A DNA stretch of 64,000 nt from Patescibacteria group bacterium (GTDB lineage: Bacteria > Patescibacteriota > Patescibacteriia > Patescibacteriales > JBAZCA01): assembly GCA_041671125.1 (NCBI GenBank), contig JBAZCA010000005.1, forward strand, positions 85,864 through 149,863. Reading direction: 5' to 3'. The notes beneath the pieces were generated by a model. The model was not told the origin of the DNA. It saw only the letters and a program-made list of their open reading frames with translations, and did no database searches. Every line of letters starts with the position of its first letter. The first letter of the stretch is position 1. The position numbers and the translations under genes were made by a program. Shown in pieces: positions 10,801-62,055 of this stretch.

Positions 10801-10868
10801 AATTAGTATAGTTCTTTATTCATTTTAACTTTTTGCATTGTCATTTTGCATTTTGATTTTTACATTTT
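10750..10868. repeat. AT-rich spacer palindrome (tgcaaaat / attttgca family) overlapping the ybeY 3' end
   Basis: ATGCAAAATGACAA at 10774-10787 is the exact reverse complement of TTGTCATTTTGCAT at 10838-10851. The arms extend imperfectly on both sides. Confidence 0.7.
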
Positions 10869-10877
10869 AATTTATCT

Positions 10878-22547: not shown

Positions 22548-22649
22548 AAGAATAAAAAAATTTTTAATTTTTAAATTTTGTAATTTTTAAAATTTAGACA
22601 TTTAAAAATTGTTTAAAAATTAAAAATTATAAAATTAAAAATTTTATCT

Positions 22650-22961
22650 ATGGACGGCGAAAAATCAAAGGAGGAAAGGTTGGAAGAGCTTTTGGAAAGG
22701 AACCTCGCGTTAACCGAGGAAATCTATAAGATGACCAAAAGCGTAAAGAATTATATAAATTTCCAAAAGGTTATGAGCGTGATTTATTTCCTTTTGATTG
22801 TCGTGCCGATAATCCTTAGCGTCATTTACCTCCCGCCGCTATTAAAGGGAATTTTCAGCCAGTATGAATCAGTGCTCGGCGGAGATGATTTTTTAAAGAC
22901 CGTGAATCCTTCTGACGCAAGGAATATGTCGCCGGAAATCAGGGGATTTTTTGAGAACTAG
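22650..22961 (+). CDS. Hypothetical small membrane protein
   Basis: 103 aa with one TM segment (VMSVIYFLLIVVPIILSVIYL). I see no recognisable motif. Confidence 0.5.
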   Translation: MDGEKSKEERLEELLERNLALTEEIYKMTKSVKNYINFQKVMSVIYFLLIVVPIILSVIYLPPLLKGIFSQYESVLGGDDFLKTVNPSDARNMSPEIRGFFEN

Positions 22962-30283: not shown

Positions 30284-30310
30284 TACGGATAGCAAAAAAT
30301 TATAAACACA

Positions 30311-30366
30311 ACACCCCGTTAACGCGGGGTTTTTGTTTATTCCGGCGAATTATGGTAAAATAATAA
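30311..30366 (+). promoter_or_regulatory. Terminator plus promoter module (copy 1 of a 56-nt exact direct repeat)
   Basis: Hairpin CCCCG-ttaacg-CGGGG (30314-30329) followed by a T-run. Then -35 TTGTTT (30333-30338), a 17-nt spacer, and an extended -10 TGgTAAAAT (30353-30361). It is identical to 43146-43201. Confidence 0.65.
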
Positions 30367-30424
30367 GTAGTAAAATTTCAAATTATTCGTGATATAGTTG
30401 TGTTATCAAAAATAAGATGATTAT

Positions 30425-33400
30425 ATGCGTAAACTAAAAAAATTTTTTGCGCCAATATTTATTTTCGCCCTTATTTTTCCTTTCGGCGCTTTCGGACAGG
30501 AGGGAAGACTTGAGGCTTCGGTGAGCGCTGAATCGTTGGGCGCTCACGCTACGGCCAGCAAAGCAGAACCGGCAGATAGCGGTCAAAATCAGTCAGGTCC
30601 TCTAAGATCAAAACAAAACCCGTTTTTTAACGATGATTTTAGTATAGCAGTTGAAGCTGATAAAACTGAAGCTCAGGATGGAATTGATACATCCGGCATA
30701 ACGACTGAATCGGAGAGCCAGGCTCCGGAGAGCGGCGAGGAAGAATCCGCGCCGATGACGCTTACCGAAGATCCGCCAGTTTACGAAGGAGAAAAAAAAT
30801 TATTGGAAGAAAAAAAACCGACTGACCCGGACTCTTCGTCCGGTTCTTTTATTTTTAATTTTCCCATTGAAGTTCCGCCGGGACGGAACGGCTTAGAACC
30901 CGATCTTAAACTTACCTATGACAGCGGCAATTCTGATAATAGCGGTGTTTTTGGTTATGGCTGGTCAGCGAATATTCCTTATATAGAAAGGATAAACCGG
31001 GAAGGCGCGGAAAGTTTATATTCTGACGATTATTTTTATTCTTCTCTTGACGGTGAACTAAAAGCATCCGAAGGCGAAGGAGAAGGTTTATTGGGACTAG
31101 GGGAAAAAGAAACTTTAATTGAGGAAAACGGCGAAAAAAAAGTTGAGTACGCCCCGTTATCACCTCTTGATTTAACAGCCGAGGAATGGGTGAAACATGG
31201 GTTAGCCGAGAAAAAAGATGACGGCAGGATTATGCTAGTTACCCCCGAGGAAGAGGAAGGCAGAAGGACATTAAAAAGCAAGGTATATTTGATGGGCAGG
31301 GAAGCTAATGGAAAAAATATTTATAGTACCAAAATTTACGGCAGGGATATCCATTTTTTAAACAACAAGACAGGCAAAAATGAGGATATTGTATTGGATT
31401 TATCATATGGCGAGGAAAGCTGGCAAACTGAAAAAACCCCTTATAAATTAACAGTTTCAGAGTTTATTGAAAATAGCATTTTCGAGTTTACAAATAAAAA
31501 TCAGAAACTAAATTTTTCGTTAGCCGATGAGTTAGGAAATTTAAGTAAAGGCTTAAAGGGAGAAAAAAAAGAAAAGGCGGACAATAGTGTTATTTTCAAG
31601 GATATTTTAGGACAGGGGGTAGATATTTCGATTGAACCGGAGAATACCGGGGTTGTTAAGGATGTTATTATTAAAGATTTTGATGCGTTAAAAAATTTCA
31701 TTACCGACGAAGAGGGCAATATCGGATTTACATTTAAACTAACTTCAAATAAAAAAATAGATATTAGAGCCGGAGACAAACATTTAAGCCAGTTAGGCAA
31801 ACTTACCTCAGGGGAAACCGTGGAGGTAATAGATGATGAAGGAACCGCTTCCTATATTTTGGCTCCAAGAGCAATAGATTCTAAAGAAGGATTATTAAAC
31901 CTGGAAATAGAATACGAATTAAAAAAAGACGGAATTTATTTAACTAAAAAAATTCCATTAGACTGGCTGGAAAACGCGAACTATCCGGTCAGAGCCGATA
32001 CGGTAGTGAGCCTATATGGCAGTAGCGGTGATGGATGGGTGATGAATTCGGGAACTGGGGCAGGATTTAGTAATTTAAGGGACGCGCAAACCGGTACGGC
32101 TAGCTATTATACTTACTCAACGGCATGGGTTAACGTGCAAAATGAAGTAAATGGATACCAAGAAATTAGAAGAGGCTTTTTTTCCTTTAATACTTCTTCA
32201 CTCGGTTACGCGGCCTTAATATCGTCAGCCGCCTTAGTCATAACATCCGTGAGTTCTAGCAACTCGTTGGGAAATTACGGCATGACTGTGGCTGCAGGAA
32301 CTCAAAGCAGTACCAGCACCCTGTCAAATGGCGATTTCGGTTCAGTCGGTTCTACGGCATTGAGCGATTCATTTTATGAGTGGAGCGTTTTTAATCTAAA
32401 TACCGACGGGAGAAACCATATTAATCCTGTCGGCTGGACTAAATTTTCCGTTAGAGAAAATTATTATGATTTATTAAATCATAATCCCGGCGCGGTTTAT
32501 GGCCAAAATGTCTTAGGTTATAAAACATCAGAAGAAGCAGGCTCGGATTATGATCCGTATCTTTATATAGAATATACGGTCAATACTGGTCCCAGATCAC
32601 CAGAAGACTTATTAACTGAAGCCCAAACCAACCCGACCAGCGTTTCCGACAGTGAGCCTGAATTCAGCGCTATATACGACGATCCCGATCTCGGAGATTA
32701 CGCCGCTTATTATCAGATTGAGATTTCCACCTCTTCGGTTGATTGGTCCAATCCTGTCTGGGATTCTAATAAAACCGCTTTCGCGACTTCAACGCCCGAA
32801 GGATCTAGATGTAACGATATAAGTTACGGCGGAACAGAGCTTGACCTTAACGGAACTACATATTATTGGCGGATTAAGTTTTGGGATGATGAGGACGCGG
32901 AAGGTCTTTGGAGCGATGGCACCGATTATTTTTCCATGTTCGGCTCGGCTCCGAACGGGCTAAGAGTTGAAGGAAATGAAAATCCTTTAAACATTGACGA
33001 TGATAAACCGGAGTTTTCCGCCGTTTTTAATGATCCCGACGACGGCGATTTGGCCGTGAATTATCAAATTCAGGTTTCTCAAATGAACAATAACTGGGAA
33101 AATCCTGTCTGGGACTCGGAAAAAATCGCGCTAGCCAGCTCAACCCCGGAAAGCGGGAGGTGTCCCGATATTTCTTATGGCGGATCATCCTTGCCGATGG
33201 ATGGCTCGACTTATTATTGGCGGATTAAATTTTGGGATGATTCGGATGTTGCGAGCGTTTGGAGCGACACTAATTATTTTATAACCGCGACAACGACGCT
33301 GTTCGGCGCCAAGATTGAAAATGGCAATTTTATTAAATACGAAAAATTAAGCGGCGGAAGCTGGCGGGCGTATGATAAAAAAGGGACCAGTTATAAATTC

Positions 33401-35464
33401 GGCTACGAAAGCGCTACCAGGCAAGATGATCCTGGGGATAACACAAAAGTATTTAAATGGATGCTTGAAGAAATCCGCGACACTAACGATAATTACATCA
33501 AATACGAGTATTATAAAGACAACGGCCAGATTTATCCCTCTAAAATTACTTATACGGGTCATATTAATACTGACGGTATTTTTGAAATAGAGTTTTTGCG
33601 CGAAGCGCGAAACGATACCGCCACCTCAACCAAAACCGGATTCGCAGTCCGGACTATGGAGCGGATTAATGAGATAAGGATTAAGGTTAATGGGACTTGG
33701 GTAAAAAAATATCAGCTTAATTACACGACCGGTAATAACGGCTACCGCTCTCTTGTAAATACCATTACCGAAATAGGTCAGGACGAACAGGCGAATACGA
33801 TTACCTTGCCGGTCAATGATTTTGATTATCAGTCAATAAGAAGCGGGTGGACTTATGATTCTAGTTACGATTTTATCGTCGGCTACGAAATGCCGATGAT
33901 CATCGGTGATTTTAACGGAGATGGGCTTAGCGATATTTTGAATTTTGGAGGCCCAAGTACATTAATAAATGACGGCGACGGCACTGGCTGGACTTATGAT
34001 ACTAATTATTCGGTACCGGCCGGAGTCAGTAAATATGCCCACGCGGCGGACGTTAACGGAGACGGGTTTAGCGATTTATTGCAGATTTATAATTCATCCG
34101 AAAGCTACGTAAAAGTCTATATCAACGACGCTGACGGCACCGGCTGGACGTATAATTCAAATTATGATCAAAGCATAACCAATCCCTATCATCCTCTTGA
34201 ATTTAATTTACTGCCAATTGGCGATTTTAACGGCGACGGACTGCCGGACTTTATTAATTGCGCCGGATCTTGTACCGCTTATATTAATGACGGCGACGGG
34301 ACAGGCTGGAGTGGGGATGGTAATTATGATTTTCCCGCCAGTGTAAGCGTTGACTCCCATGTCGTTGACGTTAATGGCGACGGTTTTGATGATTTTGCCG
34401 AGAAGGATGATAATAACTTAAAAATTTACATTAATAACGGCGACGGGACGGGCTGGACTTACGATTCTAATTACGATTTTTCTGCCAGCAATGATAATCC
34501 AGTCCCTTTCGGCGACTTTAATGGCGACGGTTTGCCCGATTTATTAAGCGGAAGCACGGGGTGTAACGCATATATTAATAAAGGAAACGGGACTGGTTGG
34601 AGCGCGGACGCGACAAACTATACGGTACCGAATGAAGCTGGTTGTAGCGCTTCGCCCGTGGATGTTGACGGTGACGGTTTATCAGATCTGGTTAATAAAT
34701 TGAATGAGACAATCAAGGTATTTATCAACAACGGCAATAAAACCGATTTAATTTCTAAAGTAAAATTAAGCGAAGGCGCTGAAACGAGCGTTATATATAA
34801 AGGAACGCCGGAATACATTGACGGATCAAATAATTTATTAAACCCCAACCTGCCTTACGGTTTTCAGACGGTTTATCAGCTAATTGCTAACGACGGCCTC
34901 GGCAATATTGCCACTTCTACTTACTCATATATCGGCGGGGATTTTTATTATGCCGATGAATATGATAAGCGGTCGGCCGGGTTTAACCGAATTGAAAGGA
35001 CTGATCCATTGGGCAATATAACTAAAACTTACTACCATCAGGGCAACGCGACCGCCTCTTCAACCGGCGAATATATTGATCATCAGTCAAAAATCGGCAA
35101 ACCATACCGGACGGAAATTTATGACGGCTCGGGAAATCTCTATTCCAAAGCGATCAATAAATGGGAAAATTACGACCTGGGGAATGAACGGGATTTCGTT
35201 AAACTGACGAGAAAGACCGATTTTAGTTATGACGGCGACGCGGATCATAAAGAAAAAGCCGAAACCTACGCGTATAATAATACTTACGGGAATCTAACGG
35301 AAAAGGTGATCTGGGGCGAGGTAAGCGGAGCGGATGACGGCTCGTTTACGGATATCGGAACCGATATCGCGTCGTCAACAATAGAATATATCGCGAGCAC
35401 AACGCCTTATATTGTTGGTCTGCCGAAAATTGAAACCCTAGCAAACCAATCCGGAGTAAGGTGA
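30425..35464 (+). CDS. TcB-like toxin-complex subunit (signal peptide, SpvB-like domain, FG-GAP/VCBS beta-propeller, first RHS/YD repeats)
   Basis: Signal peptide MRKLKKFFAPIFIFALIFPFGAFG. SpvB/TcB N-terminal motif PPGRNGLEPDLKLTYDSGNSDNSGVFGYGWS. Six FG-GAP-like units (GDFNGDGLSDIL, DVNGDGFSDLL, GDFNGDGLPDFI, and others). Two tandem ~110-aa modules end in YYWRIKFWDD. YD-type repeats lie near the C-terminus. Confidence 0.8.
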   Translation: MRKLKKFFAPIFIFALIFPFGAFGQEGRLEASVSAESLGAHATASKAEPADSGQNQSGPLRSKQNPFFNDDFSIAVEADKTEAQDGIDTSGITTESESQAPESGEEESAPMTLTEDPPVYEGEKKLLEEKKPTDPDSSSGSFIFNFPIEVPPGRNGLEPDLKLTYDSGNSDNSGVFGYGWSANIPYIERINREGAESLYSDDYFYSSLDGELKASEGEGEGLLGLGEKETLIEENGEKKVEYAPLSPLDLTAEEWVKHGLAEKKDDGRIMLVTPEEEEGRRTLKSKVYLMGREANGKNIYSTKIYGRDIHFLNNKTGKNEDIVLDLSYGEESWQTEKTPYKLTVSEFIENSIFEFTNKNQKLNFSLADELGNLSKGLKGEKKEKADNSVIFKDILGQGVDISIEPENTGVVKDVIIKDFDALKNFITDEEGNIGFTFKLTSNKKIDIRAGDKHLSQLGKLTSGETVEVIDDEGTASYILAPRAIDSKEGLLNLEIEYELKKDGIYLTKKIPLDWLENANYPVRADTVVSLYGSSGDGWVMNSGTGAGFSNLRDAQTGTASYYTYSTAWVNVQNEVNGYQEIRRGFFSFNTSSLGYAALISSAALVITSVSSSNSLGNYGMTVAAGTQSSTSTLSNGDFGSVGSTALSDSFYEWSVFNLNTDGRNHINPVGWTKFSVRENYYDLLNHNPGAVYGQNVLGYKTSEEAGSDYDPYLYIEYTVNTGPRSPEDLLTEAQTNPTSVSDSEPEFSAIYDDPDLGDYAAYYQIEISTSSVDWSNPVWDSNKTAFATSTPEGSRCNDISYGGTELDLNGTTYYWRIKFWDDEDAEGLWSDGTDYFSMFGSAPNGLRVEGNENPLNIDDDKPEFSAVFNDPDDGDLAVNYQIQVSQMNNNWENPVWDSEKIALASSTPESGRCPDISYGGSSLPMDGSTYYWRIKFWDDSDVASVWSDTNYFITATTTLFGAKIENGNFIKYEKLSGGSWRAYDKKGTSYKFGYESATRQDDPGDNTKVFKWMLEEIRDTNDNYIKYEYYKDNGQIYPSKITYTGHINTDGIFEIEFLREARNDTATSTKTGFAVRTMERINEIRIKVNGTWVKKYQLNYTTGNNGYRSLVNTITEIGQDEQANTITLPVNDFDYQSIRSGWTYDSSYDFIVGYEMPMIIGDFNGDGLSDILNFGGPSTLINDGDGTGWTYDTNYSVPAGVSKYAHAADVNGDGFSDLLQIYNSSESYVKVYINDADGTGWTYNSNYDQSITNPYHPLEFNLLPIGDFNGDGLPDFINCAGSCTAYINDGDGTGWSGDGNYDFPASVSVDSHVVDVNGDGFDDFAEKDDNNLKIYINNGDGTGWTYDSNYDFSASNDNPVPFGDFNGDGLPDLLSGSTGCNAYINKGNGTGWSADATNYTVPNEAGCSASPVDVDGDGLSDLVNKLNETIKVFINNGNKTDLISKVKLSEGAETSVIYKGTPEYIDGSNNLLNPNLPYGFQTVYQLIANDGLGNIATSTYSYIGGDFYYADEYDKRSAGFNRIERTDPLGNITKTYYHQGNATASSTGEYIDHQSKIGKPYRTEIYDGSGNLYSKAINKWENYDLGNERDFVKLTRKTDFSYDGDADHKEKAETYAYNNTYGNLTEKVIWGEVSGADDGSFTDIGTDIASSTIEYIASTTPYIVGLPKIETLANQSGVR

Positions 35465-43861: not shown

Positions 43862-45358
43862 ATGGACATAGTCATTAATTTAACCCCATTTATTAATTTT
43901 ACCCAGCTTCCGGCCGATCAGATGTTCCTGACCGTCTTTTTTACGGTTGGCTGGCTTCCGCTTTTTATCCTCTATTTATACGCGTCCAAAGAGCTTTGGC
44001 TTTATTACATCCAGATGAAATGGGGCGGAAAGCAAAGGTATATTTTTCTCGCCATTGACGTGCCGCGCGGCAATGAGCAGTCGCCGAGGGCGGTGGAAAA
44101 TATTTTTTCCTACCTCGCCGGCGGGCACATGAGCATTAATTTTTTTGAAAGATGGTGGCTCGGCGAGTGGCAGGTCCGTTTTTCGCTGGAAGTCGTTTCC
44201 ATTGAAGGCTATATTCAGTACATCATAAGGAGTCCGATTAAGTACCGGGATCTTACCGAAGCGGCGATTTATTCGCAATATCCGGACGCGGAAATTACCG
44301 AGATAAACGACTACTCCAAAGATCCGTCTTTGCCGGAGCGTTTTCCCGACGAGAATTGGGATTTAAATGGCGGGGAATTCACCTACACCAACCCTATGGC
44401 CTATCCGATTAAAACTTACCGCCAATTTGAAATCCAGAACGCCGGAGAAAATGAAGCGGTTTTTAAGGATCCGAACGCGGCCCTGATGGCGCTTTTATCA
44501 AGCCTCGGTCCGGGCGAACAGCTTTGGTATCAGATCCTTATCCAGCCGATCGGTTTTGACTGGATGGGCATGGCCGATGACGAGATAAAAAAAATATTCG
44601 GCGAAGCCATAGCGAAGAAAAAAGGCGCGCTGGAGAGCCTGGCCGATCTGCTCTTGCAGGCTCTGCATGATTTAAGCGAAGCGATTTACCAGCTCTGGGG
44701 TGATATTAAGGACGAAGAGAAAAAGACCGAAGAAAAAAAACCAAAGACCATGATAGAGCTTAATCCGGCGGAAAAGAAAAAGGTGGAAGCGATCCAGGAA
44801 AAAGTTTCCAAAGTTGCTTTTAACGTCAAAATCAGGTATATTTATCTCGCCAAAAAAGAAGTATTCAATAAAGGAAAAGCTTTTGGCGGGTTCGTCGGTT
44901 ACATGAAGCAATTTATTGATCTTGACTTAAATTCCATTAAGCCGGACATGGAACAGACCGTAACCCGGGCGCATTATTTCTATATTGAGTCGCGGAGAAA
45001 CTCTAAAAAAAACAACATATACAGGGGGTACCGGGGCCGGGACGGAGTTATTGGGAAACTGCCGGTAATCATGAACGTGGAAGAGCTGGCTACCCTCTGG
45101 CACTTCCCGCTTGAGAGCGCGGTTAAAGTTCCGCTACTCCAAAAAGCGCCGGGCCGCAAAGCCGAAGCGCCGATGAGCCTGCCGGTTCCGGCCGAAGCCC
45201 GGACCGAAGAATTTTCCGCGTTTTTTGAGGATATCCGGCCTGCTTTTATTTCTTCTTCGCCAAAACCGGCGGAAAGTGGTAAGACGGAAAAAGCTGAAAT
45301 CCCTTCAGGGAAATCCGGCTTAAAAGGTCAGGCGCCGGAGAACCTGCCTTTTGCTTAA
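43862..45358 (+). CDS. Membrane protein (2 N-terminal TM segments plus a large soluble domain), partner of the downstream ATPase
   Basis: 498 aa with TM segments MFLTVFFTVGWLPLFILYLY. I see no recognisable catalytic motif. Confidence 0.6.
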   Translation: MDIVINLTPFINFTQLPADQMFLTVFFTVGWLPLFILYLYASKELWLYYIQMKWGGKQRYIFLAIDVPRGNEQSPRAVENIFSYLAGGHMSINFFERWWLGEWQVRFSLEVVSIEGYIQYIIRSPIKYRDLTEAAIYSQYPDAEITEINDYSKDPSLPERFPDENWDLNGGEFTYTNPMAYPIKTYRQFEIQNAGENEAVFKDPNAALMALLSSLGPGEQLWYQILIQPIGFDWMGMADDEIKKIFGEAIAKKKGALESLADLLLQALHDLSEAIYQLWGDIKDEEKKTEEKKPKTMIELNPAEKKKVEAIQEKVSKVAFNVKIRYIYLAKKEVFNKGKAFGGFVGYMKQFIDLDLNSIKPDMEQTVTRAHYFYIESRRNSKKNNIYRGYRGRDGVIGKLPVIMNVEELATLWHFPLESAVKVPLLQKAPGRKAEAPMSLPVPAEARTEEFSAFFEDIRPAFISSSPKPAESGKTEKAEIPSGKSGLKGQAPENLPFA

Positions 45359-45360
45359 AT

Positions 45361-45393
45361 AATTACAAATTAAGAATTACGAATTAAAAATTA
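45361..45393. repeat. Left inverted repeat flanking the four-helix-bundle gene
   Basis: aattacaaattaagaattacgaattaaaaatt differs at 2 of 32 positions from the reverse complement of 45751-45784. Confidence 0.85.
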
Positions 45394-45759
45394 ATGAAAG
45401 ATAATGTAATTAAACATAAAAGTTACAAGTTTGCGTTAAGAATAATTGGATTGTATAAATATCTTGTTTCAAATAAAAAAGAATTTGTTATCGCAAAACA
45501 AGTATTAAGAAGCGGAACTTCTATAGGAGCAAACGTTGAAGAAGCGATTGGCGGTCAATCGGATAAGGACTTTATTTCCAAGATGTCTATCGCTTATAAA
45601 GAAGCAAGAGAAACTAATTATTGGATTAATTTGCTGGAAGATTCCGGATATATAGATGTTAAAGCGGCGGAATCAATTAAGAAAGATTGCATTGAGTTAT
45701 GCAGAATAATTGCCAGAATAAAAATGACAATGAAAAGTAAAAATAAAAACAATTCTTAA
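45394..45759 (+). CDS. Four-helix-bundle protein (family formerly called 23S rRNA intervening-sequence protein)
   Basis: YKFALRIIGLYKYL...QVLRSGTSIGANVEEAIGGQSDKDFISKMSIAYKEARETNYWINLL matches the family pattern (..RS.TSIGANI.EA..A.S..DF..K..IA.KEA.ET.YWL.LL). Confidence 0.8.
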   Translation: MKDNVIKHKSYKFALRIIGLYKYLVSNKKEFVIAKQVLRSGTSIGANVEEAIGGQSDKDFISKMSIAYKEARETNYWINLLEDSGYIDVKAAESIKKDCIELCRIIARIKMTMKSKNKNNS

Positions 45760-45784
45760 TTCGTAATTTTTAATTTGTAATTTA
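45751..45784. repeat. Right inverted repeat flanking the four-helix-bundle gene
   Basis: The sequence is aattcttaattcgtaatttttaatttgtaattta. It includes the last 3 codons of the gene and fills the gap up to the next ATG. Confidence 0.85.
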
Positions 45785-47851
45785 ATGAGTAGTAACGACA
45801 TAACATTATTCGGCATCACTACGTTCCGCAATAAGAACCGCGCTTTTGGCATCAAACTCGATGACCGGCGGCGGCATATGTATGTTATTGGAAAGACCGG
45901 AATGGGAAAGTCTACCCTTTTGGAAAATATGATTGTCGGTGATATCCGGGCCGGCCGGGGGGTAGCGGTGGTTGATCCGCACGGCGACCTCGCGGAAAAG
46001 GTGATTGACTTTATTCCGAGCGACCGGATTAACGATGTAATATATTTTAATCCGTCCGACATGGAATTTCCAATCGCTTTTAACATCCTGGAACGGGTGG
46101 AGCCGCATCTGCGGCATCTCGTCGCTTCCGGATTGATCGGAGTTTTTCAGAAACTCTGGGCCGACTCCTGGGGGCCGCGGCTGGAATATATTTTAAGGAA
46201 TACTATCCTCGCGGTTTTAGATTATCCGGGCGCGACTCTTTTAGCCGTCACCCGGATGCTTTCCGACAAAGATTTCAGGAAAAAGGTGGTGGATAAAACA
46301 TTAGATCCGGTAGTGAAAACTTTTTGGACCAAAGAATTCGCCGGTTACGCCGACAAGTTCGCTTCAGAAGCCGTTTCCCCGATCCAAAACAAAGTCGGCC
46401 AATTTTTATCCAGTTCGCTCATAAGAAATATTATCGGTCAGGTTAAATCTTCCATAGACGTCCGAAAAATTATGGACGAAGGGAAAATTTTAATCATGAA
46501 CCTTTCTAAAGGCCGCATCGGCGAAGATAATTCGGCTTTGCTCGGGAGCATGATGATCACGAAAATCCAGCTGGCGGCCATGAGCCGGGTTGACGTGCCC
46601 GAAGCCGAGCGCCACGATTTTTATCTTTACGTTGATGAATTCCAGAATTTCGCCACTGACAGTTTTGCCAATATTTTATCCGAAGCCCGGAAATACCACC
46701 TTAACTTAATTATGGGCCACCAATACGTTGAACAGCTCGGAGATGTCGTAAAAGCCGCGGTTTTCGGTAATGTCGGAACTTTAGTAGTCTTCCGCGTCGG
46801 CGCCATTGACGCCGAAGAGTTAGTAAAAGAATTTACCCCGACTTTTACCGAAGAAGATTTAGTTAACCTGCCAAAATACGAAATGTATTTAAAGCTGATG
46901 ATTGACGGAGTGTCTTCGGATCCTTTTTCCGCCCGGGGTCTTCCGCCGATCGGGGAGGAAATAAAAACCGACAGCGCCGAAAAAGTTATTAAAGTTTCCC
47001 GGGAGCGCTACGCCAGGAAAAAAGACGAAGTTGAGGAAAAAATAATGAAATGGCACGCCATTGACGAGGTGATAAATAAGGCGCCGGATAAAACCGGCGC
47101 GAGGAACGCTTCGGCCGGGAAAAACGCGCCTTCCGGAAAAAACGCGGGGCAGGGAAAAGAGGGCGGAAAAAAAGATAAAAAAACATTTACCGCCCTAGCC
47201 TCAAAGGCTTCAGAAACTCGTGGTAAAATTTACAGCAAGCCGGATGATAAGCTCCGATCCGTTCCTGTTGCGCTTCGCCAGCCGGCGGATATGGAAAATA
47301 AATCGGACAATGAGCCGTTTATTGTTTCGTCCCGTGAAGACATGGAAATCAAGAAAGCTTTGGAGGGTAAACCCGGGGATAGCGAGACGTATAAATATGA
47401 AGCTGTTTGTTCAAGATGCGCCGGCGCGGCTCGGATCTCCTTTCCGCCGGACGGCATCCGACCGATTTTTTGCAAGAACTGCCTGACGGAAATTAAAAAG
47501 GAAAAAGTCAGCGAAATGGAAGAACGGAAAAAAAATAAGCGCGAAGAGCTGGAAAAGCTCGCCAGAAAAGAACTGGAGAAAGAGAAAGCCCGGTCTGCCC
47601 GGCGGACCGGCGGCGACAGTCCTTCGCGGGAAAAAAATGTTTTGGACGGAAATAAAACCGAAGCCGAAAAAAAGAGCTTATTCACCAATAAAGAATTTGA
47701 AAAAGACTGGAAAGAAATTTCCTTAAGCGAGCTTGCCAGCTTTGTTCCGGTTAAGTTCGGAGACCTGAAAAAAGAAAAAGTTAACGATGAAAAAGGCGGC
47801 AACGGAGCGAAAAATATGGTTCCCGGAAAACCGGTTAAGATCGGATTATAA
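45785..47851 (+). CDS. VirD4/TraD-like (FtsK/HerA superfamily) P-loop ATPase without a TM domain, with a C-terminal zinc ribbon
   Basis: Walker A GKTGMGKST and Walker B FYLYVDEFQNF. The C-terminal part is K/E-rich and carries CSRCAGAARISFPPDGIRPIFCKNC. Confidence 0.75.
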   Translation: MSSNDITLFGITTFRNKNRAFGIKLDDRRRHMYVIGKTGMGKSTLLENMIVGDIRAGRGVAVVDPHGDLAEKVIDFIPSDRINDVIYFNPSDMEFPIAFNILERVEPHLRHLVASGLIGVFQKLWADSWGPRLEYILRNTILAVLDYPGATLLAVTRMLSDKDFRKKVVDKTLDPVVKTFWTKEFAGYADKFASEAVSPIQNKVGQFLSSSLIRNIIGQVKSSIDVRKIMDEGKILIMNLSKGRIGEDNSALLGSMMITKIQLAAMSRVDVPEAERHDFYLYVDEFQNFATDSFANILSEARKYHLNLIMGHQYVEQLGDVVKAAVFGNVGTLVVFRVGAIDAEELVKEFTPTFTEEDLVNLPKYEMYLKLMIDGVSSDPFSARGLPPIGEEIKTDSAEKVIKVSRERYARKKDEVEEKIMKWHAIDEVINKAPDKTGARNASAGKNAPSGKNAGQGKEGGKKDKKTFTALASKASETRGKIYSKPDDKLRSVPVALRQPADMENKSDNEPFIVSSREDMEIKKALEGKPGDSETYKYEAVCSRCAGAARISFPPDGIRPIFCKNCLTEIKKEKVSEMEERKKNKREELEKLARKELEKEKARSARRTGGDSPSREKNVLDGNKTEAEKKSLFTNKEFEKDWKEISLSELASFVPVKFGDLKKEKVNDEKGGNGAKNMVPGKPVKIGL

Positions 47852-47868
47852 TTAGACCCCCTCCCTAA

Positions 47869-47901
47869 CCCTCCCCCTATCGCTATCGCTCAGGGGGAGG
47901 G
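47869..47901. repeat. GC-rich palindromic element, copy A (CCCTCCCCCT...AGGGGGAGGG)
   Basis: The sequence is ccctccccctatcgctatcgctcagggggaggg, with a 10-bp perfect stem. Confidence 0.85.
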
Positions 47902-51475: not shown

Positions 51476-52519
51476 ATGGACATAGCTAAATATTTTCAGG
51501 AGGCGATTGACAACAAAGCGTCGGATATCCATCTCGTAGCCGGAAGCATACCGGCTCACAGGATTAACGGCGAGCTTGTTAAATTAAACCATCATCCGCT
51601 GGACGGGGGAGAGCTTGAGAAGGCTATTTATTCGCTTATTGACAATGAGACTATGGAGAGATTTAAGCGAAAGAAAGAACTGGATTTTTCCCGGGAATTT
51701 TTCGGTTCCCGCTTCCGCCTGAACCTCCATTTTCAGGAAGGGAAAATCGCCCTGGCCGGCCGGCTGGTTCCTAAATATGTTCCCAAGCCGGAAGAGATTG
51801 ATTTTAGTGAGGTGATATATAAACTCACCCATCTCCAGGACGGGCTGATTCTCGTTACCGGACCTTCGGGCAACGGAAAGTCCACGACTCTCGCTACCAT
51901 GATTGATATTATCAACCAGGAACGGAAATCGCATATCATCACCATTGAAGACCCGATTGAATACATGTTTGAGGAAAAGCAAAGCATAATTGAGCAGCGG
52001 GAAGTCGGCTCAGACACCAACAGTTTTGCCCGGGCGCTGAAATACGCCCTAAGGGAAGATCCGAATGTTATTATGGTGGGAGAAATGCGGGATCTTGAAA
52101 CGATTTCCGCCTGCCTCACGGCGGCCGAGACCGGCCACCTTGTATTATCAACCCTCCATACATCAACGGCGCCGGAAACTATTTCAAGAATCGTTGATGT
52201 TTTTCCGGCCCATCAGCAGCAGGAAGTTTTAAACATGCTTTCAACCGTTCTGCGCGCTATAATCACCCAGCAGCTTTTGCCGAAAAAGGGCGGCGGGAGA
52301 GTCGTTGCCCGAGAGTTATTATTAAACAATCAGGCAGTCTCCAGCTTAATCAGAAGGAACCAGATTGGTCAAATTTTAACTGTTATTCAGACCAGCCATC
52401 AGGACGGCATGGTTACCATGAATAAATCCATTGACCGGCTTTACGACCAGGGCAAGATTACCGAGGAAACAGCCAATAATCGGAAAAGAAACCTGGAAAC
52501 CCAGGCGGTGTATTATTAG
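51476..52519 (+). CDS. pilT: Type IV pilus retraction ATPase PilT
   Basis: ASDIHL, Walker A GPSGNGKST, IITIEDPIE, REDPNVIMVGEMRD and TGHLVLSTLHT. Confidence 0.9.
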   Translation: MDIAKYFQEAIDNKASDIHLVAGSIPAHRINGELVKLNHHPLDGGELEKAIYSLIDNETMERFKRKKELDFSREFFGSRFRLNLHFQEGKIALAGRLVPKYVPKPEEIDFSEVIYKLTHLQDGLILVTGPSGNGKSTTLATMIDIINQERKSHIITIEDPIEYMFEEKQSIIEQREVGSDTNSFARALKYALREDPNVIMVGEMRDLETISACLTAAETGHLVLSTLHTSTAPETISRIVDVFPAHQQQEVLNMLSTVLRAIITQQLLPKKGGGRVVARELLLNNQAVSSLIRRNQIGQILTVIQTSHQDGMVTMNKSIDRLYDQGKITEETANNRKRNLETQAVYY

Positions 52520-52636
52520 AATTTTTAATTTTGTAATTTTTAATTTTTAAAGCTCGGTACTAAACAATAAACCGGCTATTTAAAAATAAGGCTCATACAT
52601 TAAAAATTCAAAAATTCAAAATTAAAAATTCTATCT

Positions 52637-52966: not shown

Positions 52967-53039
52967 CCAATACATTATTTGCGAATGAGGAAATCGTTTT
53001 TTTGAATTCGTAATTCTGCATTCGTAATTCGTAAATCTT

Positions 53040-56796: not shown

Positions 56797-58101
56797 ATGC
56801 CAGAAATAAAAATCATTATCGCCAGGGAAATTCTTGATTCCCGGGGCAACCCGACGGTGGAAGTGAATATAACCCTGGATAACGGGATAGCGGTTCGAGC
56901 CAGCGCGGCTTCGGCCGGTTCTTTTAGCGCACATGAAGCAGTGGAATTAAGGGATGGTGATAAAAAAAGATTTAACGGGATGGGGGTGTTAAAAGCCGTG
57001 GAAAATGTCAATAAAATTATCAGTTCAAAACTGGCCGGCATGCAGGCGGAAGATCAGAAAAAAATTGACGCCATGATGATTGAACTGGACGGGACCGAGA
57101 ATAAGAAAAAACTGGGAGCCAACGCGATACTGCCCGTATCATTGGCATGCGCCAGGGCGGTTGCTGTTAGCCGCGGACAAGAATTGTATGAATATATGGC
57201 TGAAAATTACGAATTAAAAATTAAAAATTACAAATTACCTGTTCCGTGCTTTAATATGTTTAACGGAGGGGAACACGGCGACACCAATCTGGATTTTAAG
57301 GAATACATGGTAATACCGCTTGCCCACAAAAACTCCCTCCCCTTGAGCGAAGCGATAGGGGGAGGGTCGGGGAGGGGGTTTTCCGATATGGTTCGGATGG
57401 GTGCGGAAATTTATCATGAGCTTGGTTGGGTTTTAAAAGAGGCGGGATATGACACGGACACCGGAACCGAAGGCGGTTACGCGCCGGGTATGCATTCTTC
57501 AATCCAGGCCATGGAATTAATTATGGCCGCCGGAGTCCGCGCCGGATATAAGCCGGGAAAAGATTTTGGCTTAGGGATTGATATCGGATCCTCTGACCTG
57601 TATAATAAGGAAACCGGAAAATATGTTTTTAAGCTGGATCAGTCCCATTTTACGAGCGCCAGCCTGGTTGGATTATATTATGAGTGGTTCCGAAAATACC
57701 CGGTCGTTTATCTTGAAGACGGGCTCTCGGCGGATGATTTTTCCGGTTGGCGGGAATTAACCCGTTCGCTCGGGCCGGAAATCGCCTTGGCGGGCGACAA
57801 ACTTTTTGCCACCCGCGTAAAACGGGTAAGGGAGGCGTTAAAAGAAAAAGCCGCCAATACGGTTGTAATAAAACCGGGTCAGGCCGGTACCCTGACCGAA
57901 ACTATGGAATGTGCCTTGCTCGCGAAAAAACATGGCTATAAAATAGCCGTATCGGCGCGCGGAGGCGAAACAAACGATGATTTTATTTCCGACCTCGCCG
58001 TTGCCCTCGGCGCGGAATATATTAAAGCCGGATCATTGTCAAGAGGGGAGAGGGTGGCGAAGTATAACAGGCTGATGGAAATAGAGAAAGACTTAAAGTA
58101 A
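56797..58101 (+). CDS. eno: Enolase carrying two repeat-derived segments
   Basis: ILDSRGNPTVEV, FNGGEHG, IKPGQAGTLTE and SARGGETNDDFISDLAV. See the findings for the embedded palindrome. Confidence 0.9.
   Translation: MPEIKIIIAREILDSRGNPTVEVNITLDNGIAVRASAASAGSFSAHEAVELRDGDKKRFNGMGVLKAVENVNKIISSKLAGMQAEDQKKIDAMMIELDGTENKKKLGANAILPVSLACARAVAVSRGQELYEYMAENYELKIKNYKLPVPCFNMFNGGEHGDTNLDFKEYMVIPLAHKNSLPLSEAIGGGSGRGFSDMVRMGAEIYHELGWVLKEAGYDTDTGTEGGYAPGMHSSIQAMELIMAAGVRAGYKPGKDFGLGIDIGSSDLYNKETGKYVFKLDQSHFTSASLVGLYYEWFRKYPVVYLEDGLSADDFSGWRELTRSLGPEIALAGDKLFATRVKRVREALKEKAANTVVIKPGQAGTLTETMECALLAKKHGYKIAVSARGGETNDDFISDLAVALGAEYIKAGSLSRGERVAKYNRLMEIEKDLK
57335..57366. repeat. GC-rich palindromic element inside the eno reading frame (reverse orientation relative to copies A and B)
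   Basis: The sequence is ccctccccttgagcgaagcgatagggggaggg. Its reverse complement differs from copy A by one indel and one substitution. It is translated as part of SLPLSEAIGGGSGRG. Confidence 0.85.
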
Positions 58102-58254
58102 TTTAAAATTTTCATTTTTCAATTTTTAAACAATTTTCAATGACTCAATTTTCAATTAAGAAATTGAAATATTTTAATCATTGTTTAGAAATTGATTGCC
58201 TGTCCGGCAGGCAGGAAAATTAAAAATTGAAAATTTTTGTTTAAGTAATTTTGT

Positions 58255-59838
58255 ATGGCAAATAAAGAAAATTTGAATAAAAATAATTTACCCATGATAC
58301 TTGTTATCCTTGACGGCTGGGGCATCGCGCCCCCTTCCAAGGGCAACGCCGTTACCCTTTCCCGGACGCCGGTTATGGACGCCATAACAAAAAAATACCC
58401 TTACACCCTCCTTAAAGCCAGCGGCCGGTCAGTCGGTCTTCCCTTAAAACAGCCCGGCAATTCGGAAGCCGGACACATGAACCTCGGCGCCGGCAGGGTC
58501 GTTGATCAGGACGCAGTGATAATTACAAAAAGCATAAATGACGGCACATTTTTTAAAAACCCGGCTTTTCTCGCCGCAATAAAAAATGTTCGGGAAAAAA
58601 AATCCAACCTCCATATTATGGGCATGCTTTCCAACGGAGAGAGCGCCCACAGCGACCCGGATCATCTTCTCGCGCTTCTTACCCTGGCTCGCCTGCAAAA
58701 AATTCATAATGTCTATCTGCATTTGTTTACCGACGGCAGGGACTCGCCGAGATACGACGGCTTAAAACTGGTGCAGGATATTAAAAAAGGCTTTAAGAAC
58801 GGCGAGGCGATAGCGACTATAATGGGCCGTTATTACGCTATGGATCGGAGAAAAAAATGGTTCAATACGGAAAAAGCTTTTAACGCCCTGGTTTTAGGAA
58901 AAGGCCGGAAATCCGAATCAGTCGAAGCGGCCATCACCGAAAGCTATAACCGGGGGGATTCGGATGAGTTTATTGAACCTTACGTTATCATCCGCAAAGG
59001 CAAGCCCTTACCGAGGATAAGTAACAACGACAGCGTTATTTTCTTTAACCTCCGATCGGACCGGGCGCGCCAGCTCGCTAAGACTTTCGTCCAGAAAAAT
59101 TTTTGTGAGAAAAACGCCGCCTGTTTTATTCCGGCGAAAAGGCTGAAAAATATCGTTTTTATCGCCATGACTGATTTTGGTCCGGATTTAGGAAATATTA
59201 TTTCGGCTTTTCCGAGCGCCGACATCAAAGACACTCTTCCTATGGTATTAAAGGATGTGAGTCAGGCCTATATCGCCGAGACGGAAAAGTATGCCCATGT
59301 CACTTATTTTTTTAACGGCGGTTATGCGGGCCGGGTCAACGGGGAAGAGCAGTTTATGATTCCGTCGCCTGACGTTAAATCTTATGATGAGACTCCGCTT
59401 ATGAGCTCCGCGGCGCTTGCTGATGCCGTGATTTTAAACCTGAAAGAAAAAAAATACGATTTTACCGTCCTGAATCTGGCGGCTCCGGACATGATCGGAC
59501 ATACCGGCAACCTGAAAGCCGGAATTGAGTGCGTTGCCGGCGTGGATAAATGCCTCGGAAAAATCATTGACGCTTATAAGAAAGCCGGCGGCACGATTCT
59601 CGTTACCGCTGATCACGGCAATATTGAGGAAATGATAAACCTCGCGACCGGAGAGATTAATACCGAACATAGTTCCAACCCCGTCCCTTTTGTGCTGGTT
59701 AATGACAGCCTGAAAAAGATAGCGCTCCGGTCCGGCCGGGTGCTTTCCGACGTCGCCCCGACCGCACTTGCGCTTTTAGGGATAAAAAAACCCCCTTTAA
59801 TGAAAGGGGAGAGCCTTATAAAATCACATAACACATAA
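58255..59838 (+). CDS. gpmI: 2,3-bisphosphoglycerate-independent phosphoglycerate mutase, copy 1
   Basis: ILDGWG, GNSEAGHMNLGAGR (catalytic Ser), ETEKYAHVTYFFNGG, PDMIGHTGN and TADHGN. Confidence 0.9.
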   Translation: MANKENLNKNNLPMILVILDGWGIAPPSKGNAVTLSRTPVMDAITKKYPYTLLKASGRSVGLPLKQPGNSEAGHMNLGAGRVVDQDAVIITKSINDGTFFKNPAFLAAIKNVREKKSNLHIMGMLSNGESAHSDPDHLLALLTLARLQKIHNVYLHLFTDGRDSPRYDGLKLVQDIKKGFKNGEAIATIMGRYYAMDRRKKWFNTEKAFNALVLGKGRKSESVEAAITESYNRGDSDEFIEPYVIIRKGKPLPRISNNDSVIFFNLRSDRARQLAKTFVQKNFCEKNAACFIPAKRLKNIVFIAMTDFGPDLGNIISAFPSADIKDTLPMVLKDVSQAYIAETEKYAHVTYFFNGGYAGRVNGEEQFMIPSPDVKSYDETPLMSSAALADAVILNLKEKKYDFTVLNLAAPDMIGHTGNLKAGIECVAGVDKCLGKIIDAYKKAGGTILVTADHGNIEEMINLATGEINTEHSSNPVPFVLVNDSLKKIALRSGRVLSDVAPTALALLGIKKPPLMKGESLIKSHNT

Positions 59839-59940: not shown

Positions 59941-61545
59941 ATGTTAAATAACGACAATAAAAAAATAATCAGGCCTAAACCGGTTGTTCTTTGCGTTCTG
60001 GACGGCTGGGGAATAAATCAACCTTACAGCGGCAATGCAATTACCCAGGCGAAACTTCCTACTTATAATGAACTGGTCGCCCACTATCCATCCCTAACTC
60101 TTATGGCTTCCGGCGAGGCAGTCGGCCTTCCCTGGGGAGAAGCTGGAAATTCGGAAGTCGGCCATCTTAACCTCGGGCTAGGAAAAGTAGTTTATCAGGA
60201 TTTGCCGCGGATAAACAAAGCTATCAGTGATAACAGTTTTTTTGAAAATAAGGCTTTGCTCGGCGCTGTTGAACACGCGCGAAAAAATGGATCCGCCCTT
60301 CACCTCATAGGTCTTCTTTCCAACGGCGGAGTCCACGCTTCAATCGACCACGTTACGGCGCTTCTCGCTCTGGCCCGGGAAAAGAAGTTTGACCGGGTTT
60401 TTATCCACGCCTTTCTTGATGGCCGGGATACGGTTTATAACGGCGGAATCGGGTTTATAGAAGATTTGGAGCGCGCCATCAATGAATACGGCCGGGGAAA
60501 AATAGCAAGCCTTTCCGGCCGTTTTTACGCCATGGATCGGGACAATCACTGGGACCGGGTTGAAAAAGCTTACGCGACCATGGTTTTTGGACGGGGAAAA
60601 ATCGCGGCAGATCCGGTAGAGGCTGTTTCCGAAAGTTATGATAATAAAATATATGACGAAGAATTTTTGCCGGTCGCGATTGTTGACGATAAAGGTGTTC
60701 CATTAGGGATGATAAGTGACAATGACGCGGTGATATTTTTTAATTTCCGACCTGACCGGGCGCGCGAACTTACCAAAGCGCTTATTCTTCCCTCTTTTGA
60801 CAAATTTCAGCGCGGGTCGGCGGTAAAAAATTTATTTTTCACCTGTTTTACTGAATACGAAAAAGGTCTGCCCGTTGAAATCGCTTTTTCCGAAGAACCG
60901 GTTAAAAACACTCTGGGAGAAATCATATCCAAGGCTGGACTGAAGCAGCTCCGAATCGCTGAAACGGAGAAGTACGCCCATGTCACTTATTTTTTTAACG
61001 GCGGCAAAGAAGAAAAAAACGATGGCGAAGATCATATCATCGTCCCTTCGCCGCGGATTGACTCATATGATTTAAAGCCGGAGATGTCGGCTAATGAGGT
61101 GACAAAAAAAATTGAAGAAGCCATTCGCAAGAACTTATATGATTTTATTATGGTTAATTACGCCAATGCCGACATGGTTGGCCACACAGGGAACCTGAAA
61201 GCGGCGGTAAAAGCTGTTGAGACGATTGACAAATGCCTTTCCCGCCTTTGTCGGGTCACGCTCCAGTCAGGCGGCGTAGTAGTTATTACGGCTGATCACG
61301 GCAACGCCGAATCCATGTTCAACATGCAGACTGGAACAATTGAAAAAGAGCACAGCGTTAATCCGGTGCCCTTGATACTGGTCGGCAAAGAATTTGAAGG
61401 CAAAGCTCTTTATGGCTCCAATGCTATTGGTTCAGACCTTACTCTTTCCCGACCGGCCGGAATTTTGTCCGATGTCGCTCCGACCATCCTGAAAATTATG
61501 GGGCTCGCAAAGCCCAAAGAAATGACGGGGAGATCGCTAATATAA
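59941..61545 (+). CDS. gpmI: 2,3-bisphosphoglycerate-independent phosphoglycerate mutase, copy 2
   Basis: VLDGWG, GNSEVGHLNLGLGK, ETEKYAHVTYFFNGG, ADMVGHTGN and TADHGN. Confidence 0.9.
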   Translation: MLNNDNKKIIRPKPVVLCVLDGWGINQPYSGNAITQAKLPTYNELVAHYPSLTLMASGEAVGLPWGEAGNSEVGHLNLGLGKVVYQDLPRINKAISDNSFFENKALLGAVEHARKNGSALHLIGLLSNGGVHASIDHVTALLALAREKKFDRVFIHAFLDGRDTVYNGGIGFIEDLERAINEYGRGKIASLSGRFYAMDRDNHWDRVEKAYATMVFGRGKIAADPVEAVSESYDNKIYDEEFLPVAIVDDKGVPLGMISDNDAVIFFNFRPDRARELTKALILPSFDKFQRGSAVKNLFFTCFTEYEKGLPVEIAFSEEPVKNTLGEIISKAGLKQLRIAETEKYAHVTYFFNGGKEEKNDGEDHIIVPSPRIDSYDLKPEMSANEVTKKIEEAIRKNLYDFIMVNYANADMVGHTGNLKAAVKAVETIDKCLSRLCRVTLQSGGVVVITADHGNAESMFNMQTGTIEKEHSVNPVPLILVGKEFEGKALYGSNAIGSDLTLSRPAGILSDVAPTILKIMGLAKPKEMTGRSLI

Positions 61546-61593
61546 TTTTTTAATTTTTTAAAATTTTGTTTAAAAATTATAAAATTAAAAATT

Positions 61594-62055
61594 TTATATT
61601 ATATAGTATCCAATCAGGCTAACAAACAAACCAATAACTGCTCCGGCTAAAACTTGAGCCGGGGTGTGGCCGATTTTTTCCAAAAGCCTCGGATAGTGCC
61701 GGTCCAGGAGGTCATCTTCTTTTAAATCCCGAACTAAAACGTTTAAGACTTTTCCCTGGTCGCCGAGATACTGCCGGAGGCCGAACGCGTCCCGGATAAT
61801 GAAAATCGCCAGAAAAAAACTCAGGGTGAATGACGGCGAATAAAACCCCTGCTCCAGCCCCATGATGGTTGCGAGAGAAACAACTATGGCCGAATGCATG
61901 GAAGGCATTCCGGAATAAGCGACCAGACTACGCCAGTTCCATTTGTAATGGTTGGAGGGGATGAATAACTTCGCCAGCTGGGCGATTGTGCCGGCGATAA
62001 TGGGAATTAGCAGGATGTTATACATAAGATAGGAATTAATTATTACGCTTTCCAT
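61594..62055 (-). CDS. Divergent PAP2-family membrane protein (YuiD/DUF212-like)
   Basis: IIAGTIAQLAKLFI and SGMPSMHSAIVVSLAT. It is the only well-supported minus-strand gene in the window. Confidence 0.7.
   Translation of the reverse strand: MESVIINSYLMYNILLIPIIAGTIAQLAKLFIPSNHYKWNWRSLVAYSGMPSMHSAIVVSLATIMGLEQGFYSPSFTLSFFLAIFIIRDAFGLRQYLGDQGKVLNVLVRDLKEDDLLDRHYPRLLEKIGHTPAQVLAGAVIGLFVSLIGYYII

Follow-up and report, generated by a model that had tools for sequence, protein, structure and literature searches.

A four-helix-bundle gene cassette with inverted heptamer arms at an operon junction of a Patescibacteria group bacterium

A small gene between two operon genes

The stretch analyzed here, referred to throughout as the window, comprises 64,000 nt of contig JBAZCA010000005.1 from a Patescibacteria group bacterium; almost all of its genes lie on the + strand, at a GC of ~0.45-0.49. 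At 45361-45782, the window holds one cassette, and only one in its 64 kb, in which a promoter-less, co-oriented gene for a four-helix-bundle (4HB) protein stands between inverted arrays of ~4.5 heptamers. The upstream host gene (43862-45358, + strand) encodes a 498-aa membrane protein, with DUF8128 in an orthologue, and is the operon partner of the downstream gene in relatives. The latter (45785-47851, + strand) encodes a VirD4/TraD-like coupling ATPase with a CxxC-x17-CxxC zinc finger, and its nearest orthologues are Falkowbacteria-like. Between the two, the 4HB gene (45394-45759, + strand) encodes a protein of 121 aa with a pI of 9.6 and a net charge of +9, at a GC of 0.30 vs 0.47-0.48 in its two neighbors. 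The protein matches PF05635 at 97.4 bits (cut-off 33.8; profile positions 1-105 of 106) and TIGR02436 at 107.1 bits (cut-off 24), and its closest solved structure is 2RLD, matched over the full length at E = 6.8e-34, an entry with five chains. An identical protein is on record from a metagenome-assembled genome of a "Patescibacteria group bacterium," and samples SRR18595301 and SRR6484324 contain the locus in identical form.

The original prediction, made from the sequence alone, had described a 32-nt inverted repeat with two mismatches around a gene filling the gap between its neighbors, and both statements held. The left arm (45361-45392, + strand) consists of 4.5 tandem heptamers, AATTACA AATTAAG AATTACG AATTAAA AATT; it starts 2 nt past the upstream stop codon, which ends at 45358, and itself ends 1 nt ahead of the 4HB ATG. 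The right arm (45751-45782, + strand) is the inverted array AATTCTT AATTCGT AATTTTT AATTTGT AATT, within which the 4HB stop codon falls, and it ends 2 nt ahead of the ATPase ATG at 45785. The arms are separated by 358 nt and are complementary at 30 of 32 positions (94%), with an inverted-repeat score at z = 19.7 vs shuffled flanks. They had also been called AT-rich, which is true here, but their defining property is heptamer periodicity (tandem AATTAnn), as the units are GC-rich in other hosts (e.g., GGAGGTC and TGGTCAC). With a period of 7 (repeat families D2 and D3, spacing 14), the arms are head-to-tail repeats like the short tandemly repeated repetitive (STRR) sequences, and AATTACGAATT occurs four times against 0.23 expected.

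We compared this junction across 80 species-level genomes with an ATPase orthologue, each inspected over the fetched locus region. The membrane-protein gene lies directly upstream of the ATPase gene in ~70 of the 80, with a usual gap of 0-30 nt or a 4-nt overlap. The cassette-free state is present in L164, the syntenic genome closest to the window (80% identity for the ATPase, 77% for enolase), where the junction reads TAA-TTAAAATT-ATG with an 8-nt spacer. L164 is collinear with the window in this region at 82-94% nucleotide identity, with 88-94% on either side of the junction, and the window differs from it by two insertions only, a 12.8-kb block and the ~420-nt cassette. The cassette is thus an insertion at a site where the closest relative has an 8-nt spacer. 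Nor is the gene a constant feature of this position, as all 80 loci lack a close 4HB homologue and 78 lack any; profile and Pfam searches found divergent ones in the other two. L070, a distant Portnoybacteria genome, has at this junction a 4HB gene of 34% identity whose A-rich/T-rich arms are weak, and L072, another genome of the candidate phyla radiation (CPR), has a truncated 4HB gene 4 kb downstream of the junction with perfect 34-nt AGAAAAT-type arms. With the empty L164 site, this gives the sporadic presence among close relatives that marks intervening sequence (IVS) elements.

The larger insertion relative to L164 (approximately 30364-43142; GC 0.37-0.43) is flanked by a 59-nt direct repeat, 98% identical, at 30308-30366 and 43143-43201, which resembles a terminator hairpin plus promoter. 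Among the genes of the block are those for giant proteins of surface type (1679 and 1007 aa) and for a trypsin-like protease, two small membrane open reading frames (ORFs) that are very AT-rich, and an ORF6N fragment. Three more genes share the low GC of the 4HB gene (0.27-0.29; 15507-16151, 38462-38836, and 40254-40583) and are probably also foreign; the one at 15507-16151 is flanked by genes for Fic and for a PIF1-like helicase. Other genes of mobile or defense type in the window include RhuM as well as the ORF6N fragment.

The same architecture in other 4HB homologues

To place the cassette among its relatives, we used 80 metagenomic loci whose 4HB proteins are 51-70% identical to that of the window, 72 of them with both flanks, and 872 other genes in the same and related loci as controls; a score of ≥15 was counted as a strong inverted repeat. 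Such repeats flank 56 of 72 homologues (78%; median score 19.5), and 65 of 72 lie at z > 4.8 vs shuffles. Among the controls, the median is 7.5 and 1.4% reach 15 (Mann-Whitney p = 1e-36 vs the homologues). Almost without exception, the arms are heptamer arrays, with a median length of 31 nt. Left arms are most often (AATTACG)n and right arms (CGTAATT)n, AATTACG being the unit of 20 of 56 cassettes; AATTAGG, AATTAAG, AATTATG, and AATTGAT are also found. Across the 1.25 Mb of fetched loci, there are 102 arrays of period 7 against ≤5 for each of periods 5, 6, and 8-11, an excess of at least 20-fold, and for 64 of the 102, a 4HB gene is no more than 130 nt away. Given the dominance of period 7 and the concentration of arrays near gene ends and 4HB genes, the units do not behave as a low-complexity background indifferent to gene boundaries.

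Placement is similarly regular. In loci with co-directional neighbors, the cassette is co-oriented with both in 39 cases and opposed in three, and its median position is flush, the left arm beginning 0 nt past the upstream stop and the right arm ending 5 nt ahead of the downstream start codon. The 4HB gene exceeds its flanks in GC at only one of the 72 loci. No rRNA location was found among 20 cassette loci tested, the window has no Rfam rRNA match, and the arms match no Rfam family. One 4HB cassette, in L106 (3396-3502), has a right arm that stops 3 nt short of a tRNA gene, so flush placement extends beyond protein-coding neighbors.

A sample of curated plasmids repeats the design with lineage-specific units, at z = 9-20: GGAGGTC in Nostoc punctiforme, TGGTCAC in Euhalothece, AATCCCC/AATCGTA in Planktothrix, ATTTTAG in Gloeocapsa, and GATTAGT in Bernardetia. 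The idea of a cassette, proposed for the window by the original prediction, thereby holds well beyond it, and the unit of gene plus arms is conserved across phyla. Several plasmid 4HB genes split defense operons, namely cas2|cas1 (L235, Anabaena), DISARM drmD|BREX pglX (L239, Planktothrix), DUF1156 methylase|Swt1-HEPN (L240, Gloeocapsa), and type I hsdS|hsdR (L241, Monoglobus; this one a pseudogene). Either defense islands tolerate 4HB insertions, or the cassettes are linked in some way to defense.

The sequence of the arms follows that of the protein. Cassette pairs sharing a heptamer unit have a protein identity of 0.61 vs 0.55 for other pairs, and protein identity falls with unit distance (Spearman -0.40, permutation p = 5e-4). 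Because heptamer sequence tracks protein sequence, gene and arms appear to be inherited as a unit. The gene has AATTACG arms in hosts with flank GC anywhere from 0.31 to 0.57, which indicates that the arms come with the gene and not from the host. The 4HB protein evolves under purifying selection, with a dN/dS of ~0.3 (range 0.07-0.45) at dS ~1. Even where synonymous sites between cassettes are saturated, the heptamer unit stays the same, so its sequence is itself constrained. As the encoded protein is the only factor common to all hosts, it would be the best candidate for recognizing the arms.

Phages were considered as a habitat or vector and set aside, since the patterns used recovered only three 4HB homologues in 2.9 million viral contigs, two of them with arms. 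We also considered PDDEXK_3 as an alternative cargo. In L142 (60-680), a small PDDEXK_3 gene of the GxxExxY type lies between two direct copies of a ~90-nt palindromic element, a second kind of small-gene cassette; it had scored as having inverted-repeat flanks, but as these are not heptamer arms, it was not counted. The same contig also holds a heptamer-armed 4HB cassette.

Heptamer arrays without the gene

Palindromes of related composition occur in other spacers of the window, and those named in the original prediction are real, with slightly shifted limits. These unstranded elements comprise a gene-less AT-rich heptamer palindrome at 52517-52633 (34-nt arms, 91% complementary; 49-nt loop), with its T-rich arm after a stop codon and its A-rich arm before an ATG; a second at 22552-22651 (80% over 40 nt); an AT-rich palindrome in the eno-gpmI spacer at 58105-58237 (91% over 22 nt); and a heptamer palindrome between convergent genes at 61538-61601 (77% over 30 nt). 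The segment 22612-22646 is 94% complementary to 52517-52551, 30 kb away, and the spacer palindromes form a dispersed family of AATTTTT/AAAAATT units. Most of them have the arm order opposite to that of the cassette, i.e., T-rich arm, loop, and A-rich arm, and only shared motifs tie them to it. A gene-less palindrome in the cassette order, A-rich then T-rich, lies at 10757-10868, with 55-nt arms and a 2-nt loop, and overlaps the 3′ end of ybeY.

Two smaller claims about these repeats fared less well. Three copies of the arm unit had been proposed at 53008-53030; what is there is a solo array of right-arm type (53005-53035, + strand; AATTCGT AATTCTGC ATTCGT AATTCGT AA), just upstream of a gene starting at 53040, with one exact AATTCGTAATT and two partial units. 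The junction said to be shared by three gene starts, TATCTATG, is indeed present at 10873, 22645, and 52632 after an A-rich heptamer arm, but its enrichment is marginal (four vs 1.15 expected, equaled in five of 100 shuffles), and it is at most a weak shared leader of the three genes.

Gene-less heptamer arrays or inverted pairs also lie at the membrane-protein/ATPase junction of other CPR genomes, with the units AACTAAG (L004), AGTACTT (L039), AATCCTC (L040), AAGTAGC (L045), AATTTCT (L055), and ACGAGTT (L063). Starting from the arrays instead of the gene, we scanned IMG/VR viral contigs for (AATTACG) arrays of ≥3 units and obtained 76, of which 90% are intergenic and tight against gene ends.

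Arrays are found inside genes as well. The exact copy of a 19-mer that had been reported within eno at 57207-57225 does encode ENYELKIKNYK, though its true position is 57205-57223. It is part of a left-arm-type array (57205-57238, + strand; AATTACG AATTAAA AATTAAA AATTACA AATTAC) encoding the surface loop NYELKIKNYKL. This loop is conserved among related enolases, and in each the DNA is a heptamer array: near position 906, L168 has (AATTACA)x4 and L167 has AATTATG AATTAGG AATTAAG AATTACG, and L169 has (AAATTCC)2, a 20-nt GC palindrome, and (AAATTCC)3. A recent arm copy or insertion was rejected as the origin of the eno 19-mer, as the loop is kept both as peptide and as heptamer array across the clade. 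The unit differs between lineages (AATTACG, AATTACA, AAATTCC), so the loop peptide (NYELxIx repeats) is dictated by DNA-repeat dynamics and not the reverse. No frame of an (AATTACG)n array contains a stop codon, and its translation is NYELRIT; every frame of the complement contains TAA, hence only the left-type orientation is found inside genes, and 4HB ORFs end within the right arm. In-frame arrays such as that in eno show how repeats can become part of protein loops.

Other small palindromes accompany these arrays. A 45-nt GC-rich palindromic repeat, CCCCCTCCC...GGGGGAGGG, lies in two spacers (47857-47901 and 63235-63279), and a third, inverted copy lies in frame inside eno (57339-57379), encoding the 15-aa insert SLPLSEAIGGGSGRG; the loop that holds this insert is variably filled or empty in related enolases, which recalls the Rickettsia palindromic elements. 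The 20-nt palindrome TGCCTGTCCGGCAGGCAGG occupies 58197-58216, in the loop of the eno-gpmI spacer palindrome, and in L169 (~930-950), it stands in frame amid the eno-loop heptamer array (…KFQIPCLSGRQANSKFQIP…); this looks like a tiny mobile palindrome with heptamer arrays as its target. Downstream of eno lie two tandem paralogues of cofactor-independent phosphoglycerate mutase (58255-59838 and 59941-61545), 92% identical over a 50-nt stretch.

Interpretation and comparison with known systems

We then considered what kind of element the cassette might be. In the predicted minimum-free-energy RNA fold, the arm stem closes the whole cassette (z = -5.1) with ~27 continuous pairs, or ~34 including a short outer helix formed by the upstream gene's 3′ end and the region around the downstream gene's start. 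Pairing terminal inverted repeats that enclose an ORF, here 32 nt each, are a mark of IVS elements. Promoter and terminator roles were rejected because the signals are at background level: promoter-like sites number six vs 4.7 expected, and the cassette has no terminator-like site (a GC-rich stem plus T tract). Our preferred reading, with moderate confidence, is that 45361-45782 is a selfish gene cassette of the type represented by ORF-bearing 23S rRNA IVSs, acquired by horizontal transfer and lodged in an intercistronic junction of a protein-coding operon. In the read-through transcript, the arms would pair and loop out the cassette, with the upstream stop and the downstream start meeting at the base of the stem. 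Such looping-out, probably with removal, could let a tight junction tolerate the insertion, and by analogy with the IVSs of Coxiella, Leptospira, and Salmonella, the stem may be an RNase III substrate. The basic, probably pentameric 4HB protein would recognize its own heptamer arms sequence-specifically, this being the only dedicated function of the element, and spread would most likely proceed via the arms, whether through recombination with heptamer arrays or hairpins already resident or through staggered cuts at AATT.

Several observations weigh against this reading. Mismatches within the arms comprise 43 G-U and 41 A-C on the sense strand; without a G-U excess, selection on an RNA stem is unsupported and is not claimed here, and complementarity may be kept at the DNA level or the arms may simply be young. 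Quasipalindrome template switching is one possible DNA-level route by which arms stay complementary. No RNase III gene lies in the 64-kb window, and neither do transposase, integrase, or reverse transcriptase genes, and no target-site duplication is visible in 56 cassettes. Mobility is something we infer from the empty site, composition, and patchy distribution only, and the protein-heptamer link is correlative and could partly reflect host relatedness. The L070 gene was rejected as a sign of independent re-use or targeting of the junction, as ~0.18 such coincidences are expected at the observed cassette density. Finally, only three of the 76 viral (AATTACG)n arrays have a 4HB gene beside them, which means that arrays are not simply cassette markers, nor dependent on a neighboring gene copy. 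The proposal of an AT-rich hairpin family that may carry, or at least accompanies, the 4HB gene is supported as regards the gene-plus-arms cassette, which is general, and the position of arrays at gene ends.

Since 4HB genes of this subfamily are nearly always found with arrays but arrays are mostly found alone, the main rival is one in which the arrays came first. Heptamer arrays and hairpins would then be autonomous, arising by slippage, template-switch homogenization, and recombination, and the 4HB gene would have been captured into pre-existing left-loop-right hairpins via arm homology; in a variant, the protein may serve the host, e.g., as a regulator binding arrays genome-wide, and not be selfish at all. 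We consider this possible but on balance unlikely. It accounts well for gene-less left-loop-right hairpins in the window (10757-10868), at the same junction of L004, L045, and L063, and in viral L191 and L204, as well as for arrays that far outnumber 4HB genes, eno arrays that persist across the whole clade without any cassette, strand-symmetric arm mismatches, as DNA-level homogenization predicts, and window arms that include the host-typical unit AATTAAA. Abundant heptamer arrays and inverted pairs of unexplained function are also in the literature (PMC4692102; 10.1101/309039). It fits poorly with the L164 site, which is without an array and implies that array and gene arrived together or in quick succession, and with the constancy of AATTACG arms across host flank GC and the covariation of arm unit and protein, which argue that the arms travel with the gene and are not host-supplied.

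A miniature inverted-repeat transposable element (MITE) with cargo, i.e., a non-autonomous DNA transposon whose arms are bound by a transposase encoded elsewhere and whose AATT target is duplicated, seems improbable to us. Terminal inverted repeats, a clean insertion, an empty site, and strand-symmetric arm mismatches are what it predicts, and both arms start or end with AATT, with which a 4-bp AATT duplication would merge and so be invisible. Yet no transposase is found in the window or beside any of ~80 cassettes, no target-site duplication is recognizable in the 56, and the 39 vs 3 co-orientation with host operons is unexpected from transposase targeting alone; moreover, we know of no transposase family for which tandem-heptamer terminal repeats that vary by cargo protein are typical. 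Even less probable is a retroelement accessory, in which the 4HB protein is an Avd-like cofactor and a reverse transcriptase supplied in trans copies the arm-closed cassette RNA; reiterative, telomerase-like synthesis could then even account for the tandem heptamers. Kinship to Avd, a structured-RNA binder obligatory for reverse transcriptase activity in diversity-generating retroelements (DGRs), speaks for this, as do some homologues that also match PF22296 (bAvd), and inverted tandem arrays at both ends would recall the ends of linear replicons. Against it, the 64-kb window has no reverse transcriptase and no template/variable repeat pair, plasmid copies have neither beside them, and the arms have no G-U signature of RNA selection. 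A DGR identity for the cassette itself was rejected for want of a reverse transcriptase and of template/variable repeats in the window, where no direct repeat involves the cassette. That nothing special is present, the gene being a resident one whose AT-rich, low-complexity or terminator-like flanks are complementary by chance, is very unlikely: other AT-rich palindromic spacers in the genome do have similar motifs, but the score against shuffles, the 78% of homologues against 1.4% of controls, the empty site in relatives, the cross-phylum architecture, and the lack of terminator features all contradict it.

Returning to the IVS-type cassette, a bolder form of the reading, which we put forward tentatively and regard as doubtful, would make 4HB proteins the sequence-specific recognition or propagation factor for heptamer arrays, with a five-subunit ring reading ~4-5 heptamers. 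A hitherto unrecognized class of mobile DNA would then have the 4HB cassettes as its autonomous "master copies" and solo or inverted arrays, including cyanobacterial STRR sequences and the Xanthomonas GGGAATC repeats, as its gene-less derivatives. If true, this would explain the period of seven and define mobility without a transposase, integrase, or reverse transcriptase of known type. We class the window element as an IVS-type element outside rRNA; the larger reading of 4HB proteins as recognition factors of heptamer-array elements is plausible but unproven.

Such a reading would tie together a protein family and a repeat class that are both unexplained, through the hypothesis of protein-heptamer recognition plus looping-out or RNase III processing. 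The PF05635/TIGR02436 family is very large (~8,000 scored candidates at E ≤ 1e-3 in one search), and to our knowledge, its members have been without a known function since rRNA IVSs were described in the early 1990s. The rRNA "intervening sequence" would become one special habitat of a much wider cassette class, and annotators could recognize cassettes as insertions that split operons, e.g., cas2|cas1 and hsdS|hsdR. Parts of this picture are known already, namely the terminal inverted repeats of ORF-bearing rRNA IVSs, the Coxiella heptamers, the abundance of inverted heptamer arrays, and the pentameric Avd relative. We found no earlier account of a family-wide 4HB cassette with inverted heptamers, of flush co-oriented placement, or of protein-unit covariation beyond a single-species note on Coxiella, in a search that left subscription journals mostly outside.

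Among known systems, integron cassettes are similar in being promoter-less single ORFs, co-oriented, dependent on read-through, and bounded by imperfect palindromes. They differ in having one 3′ attC site instead of two inverted arrays; here, there is no integrase, cassette array, or GTTRRRY core site, and the neighbors are conserved operon genes. Rickettsia palindromic elements sit in frame within genes, and MITEs and the repetitive extragenic palindromic (REP) and bacterial interspersed mosaic element (BIME) types sit at gene boundaries. All of these resemble the cassette as small, non-autonomous, inverted-repeat-defined elements, and the window itself has in-frame palindromic inserts in eno. 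By contrast, the cassette arms are tandem heptamers enclosing a conserved protein gene, and no transposase of the insertion sequence (IS) or REP-associated tyrosine transposase (RAYT) type was seen. Avd of the DGRs is a remote homologue of the 4HB protein and likewise a small, basic four-helix bundle; it forms a pentameric basic barrel "similar to S23 ribosomal proteins" that binds structured RNA and reverse transcriptase (10.1101/2023.10.23.563531). In contrast to Avd, the 4HB gene here stands alone with heptamer arms, without a reverse transcriptase or template/variable repeats.

Heptamer repeats, such as the cyanobacterial STRR sequences, Xanthomonas GGGAATC, and Beggiatoaceae TAACTGA, share the period of 7 and the mainly intergenic location, and the 4HB genes of cyanobacterial plasmids are flanked by them. 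Intergenic heptamer arrays are over-represented, mostly have ~4 units, often form inverted (convergent) pairs, and often end a few nucleotides before a start codon (PMC4692102, PMC4679880, 10.1101/309039); among the intergenic tandem repeats of prokaryotes, none is commoner than the heptamer class, for whose function there is "no clear clue" (10.1101/309039). Those reports treat them as simple repeats without a tie to 4HB genes, whereas here, the arrays are the two arms of a cassette and co-vary with its protein.

The closest comparison is with the ORF-bearing 23S rRNA IVSs of Leptospira and Coxiella burnetii. The window cassette differs in lying between two protein genes and not in 23S helix 25 or 45, and we did not find the heptamer nature of both arms or the flush co-oriented placement described as family-wide traits of those IVSs. 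The Coxiella IVS has a 28-bp terminal stem, an ORF for the 4HB protein S23p, tandem GACAGAT heptamers before the ATG, and excision by RNase III (PMC4990558). The two thus share a protein family, an ORF-enclosing stem (28 bp in Coxiella, 32 nt here), heptamers directly upstream of the ATG, a recombinase-free element, and a sporadic distribution that suggests horizontal spread (PMC4990558).

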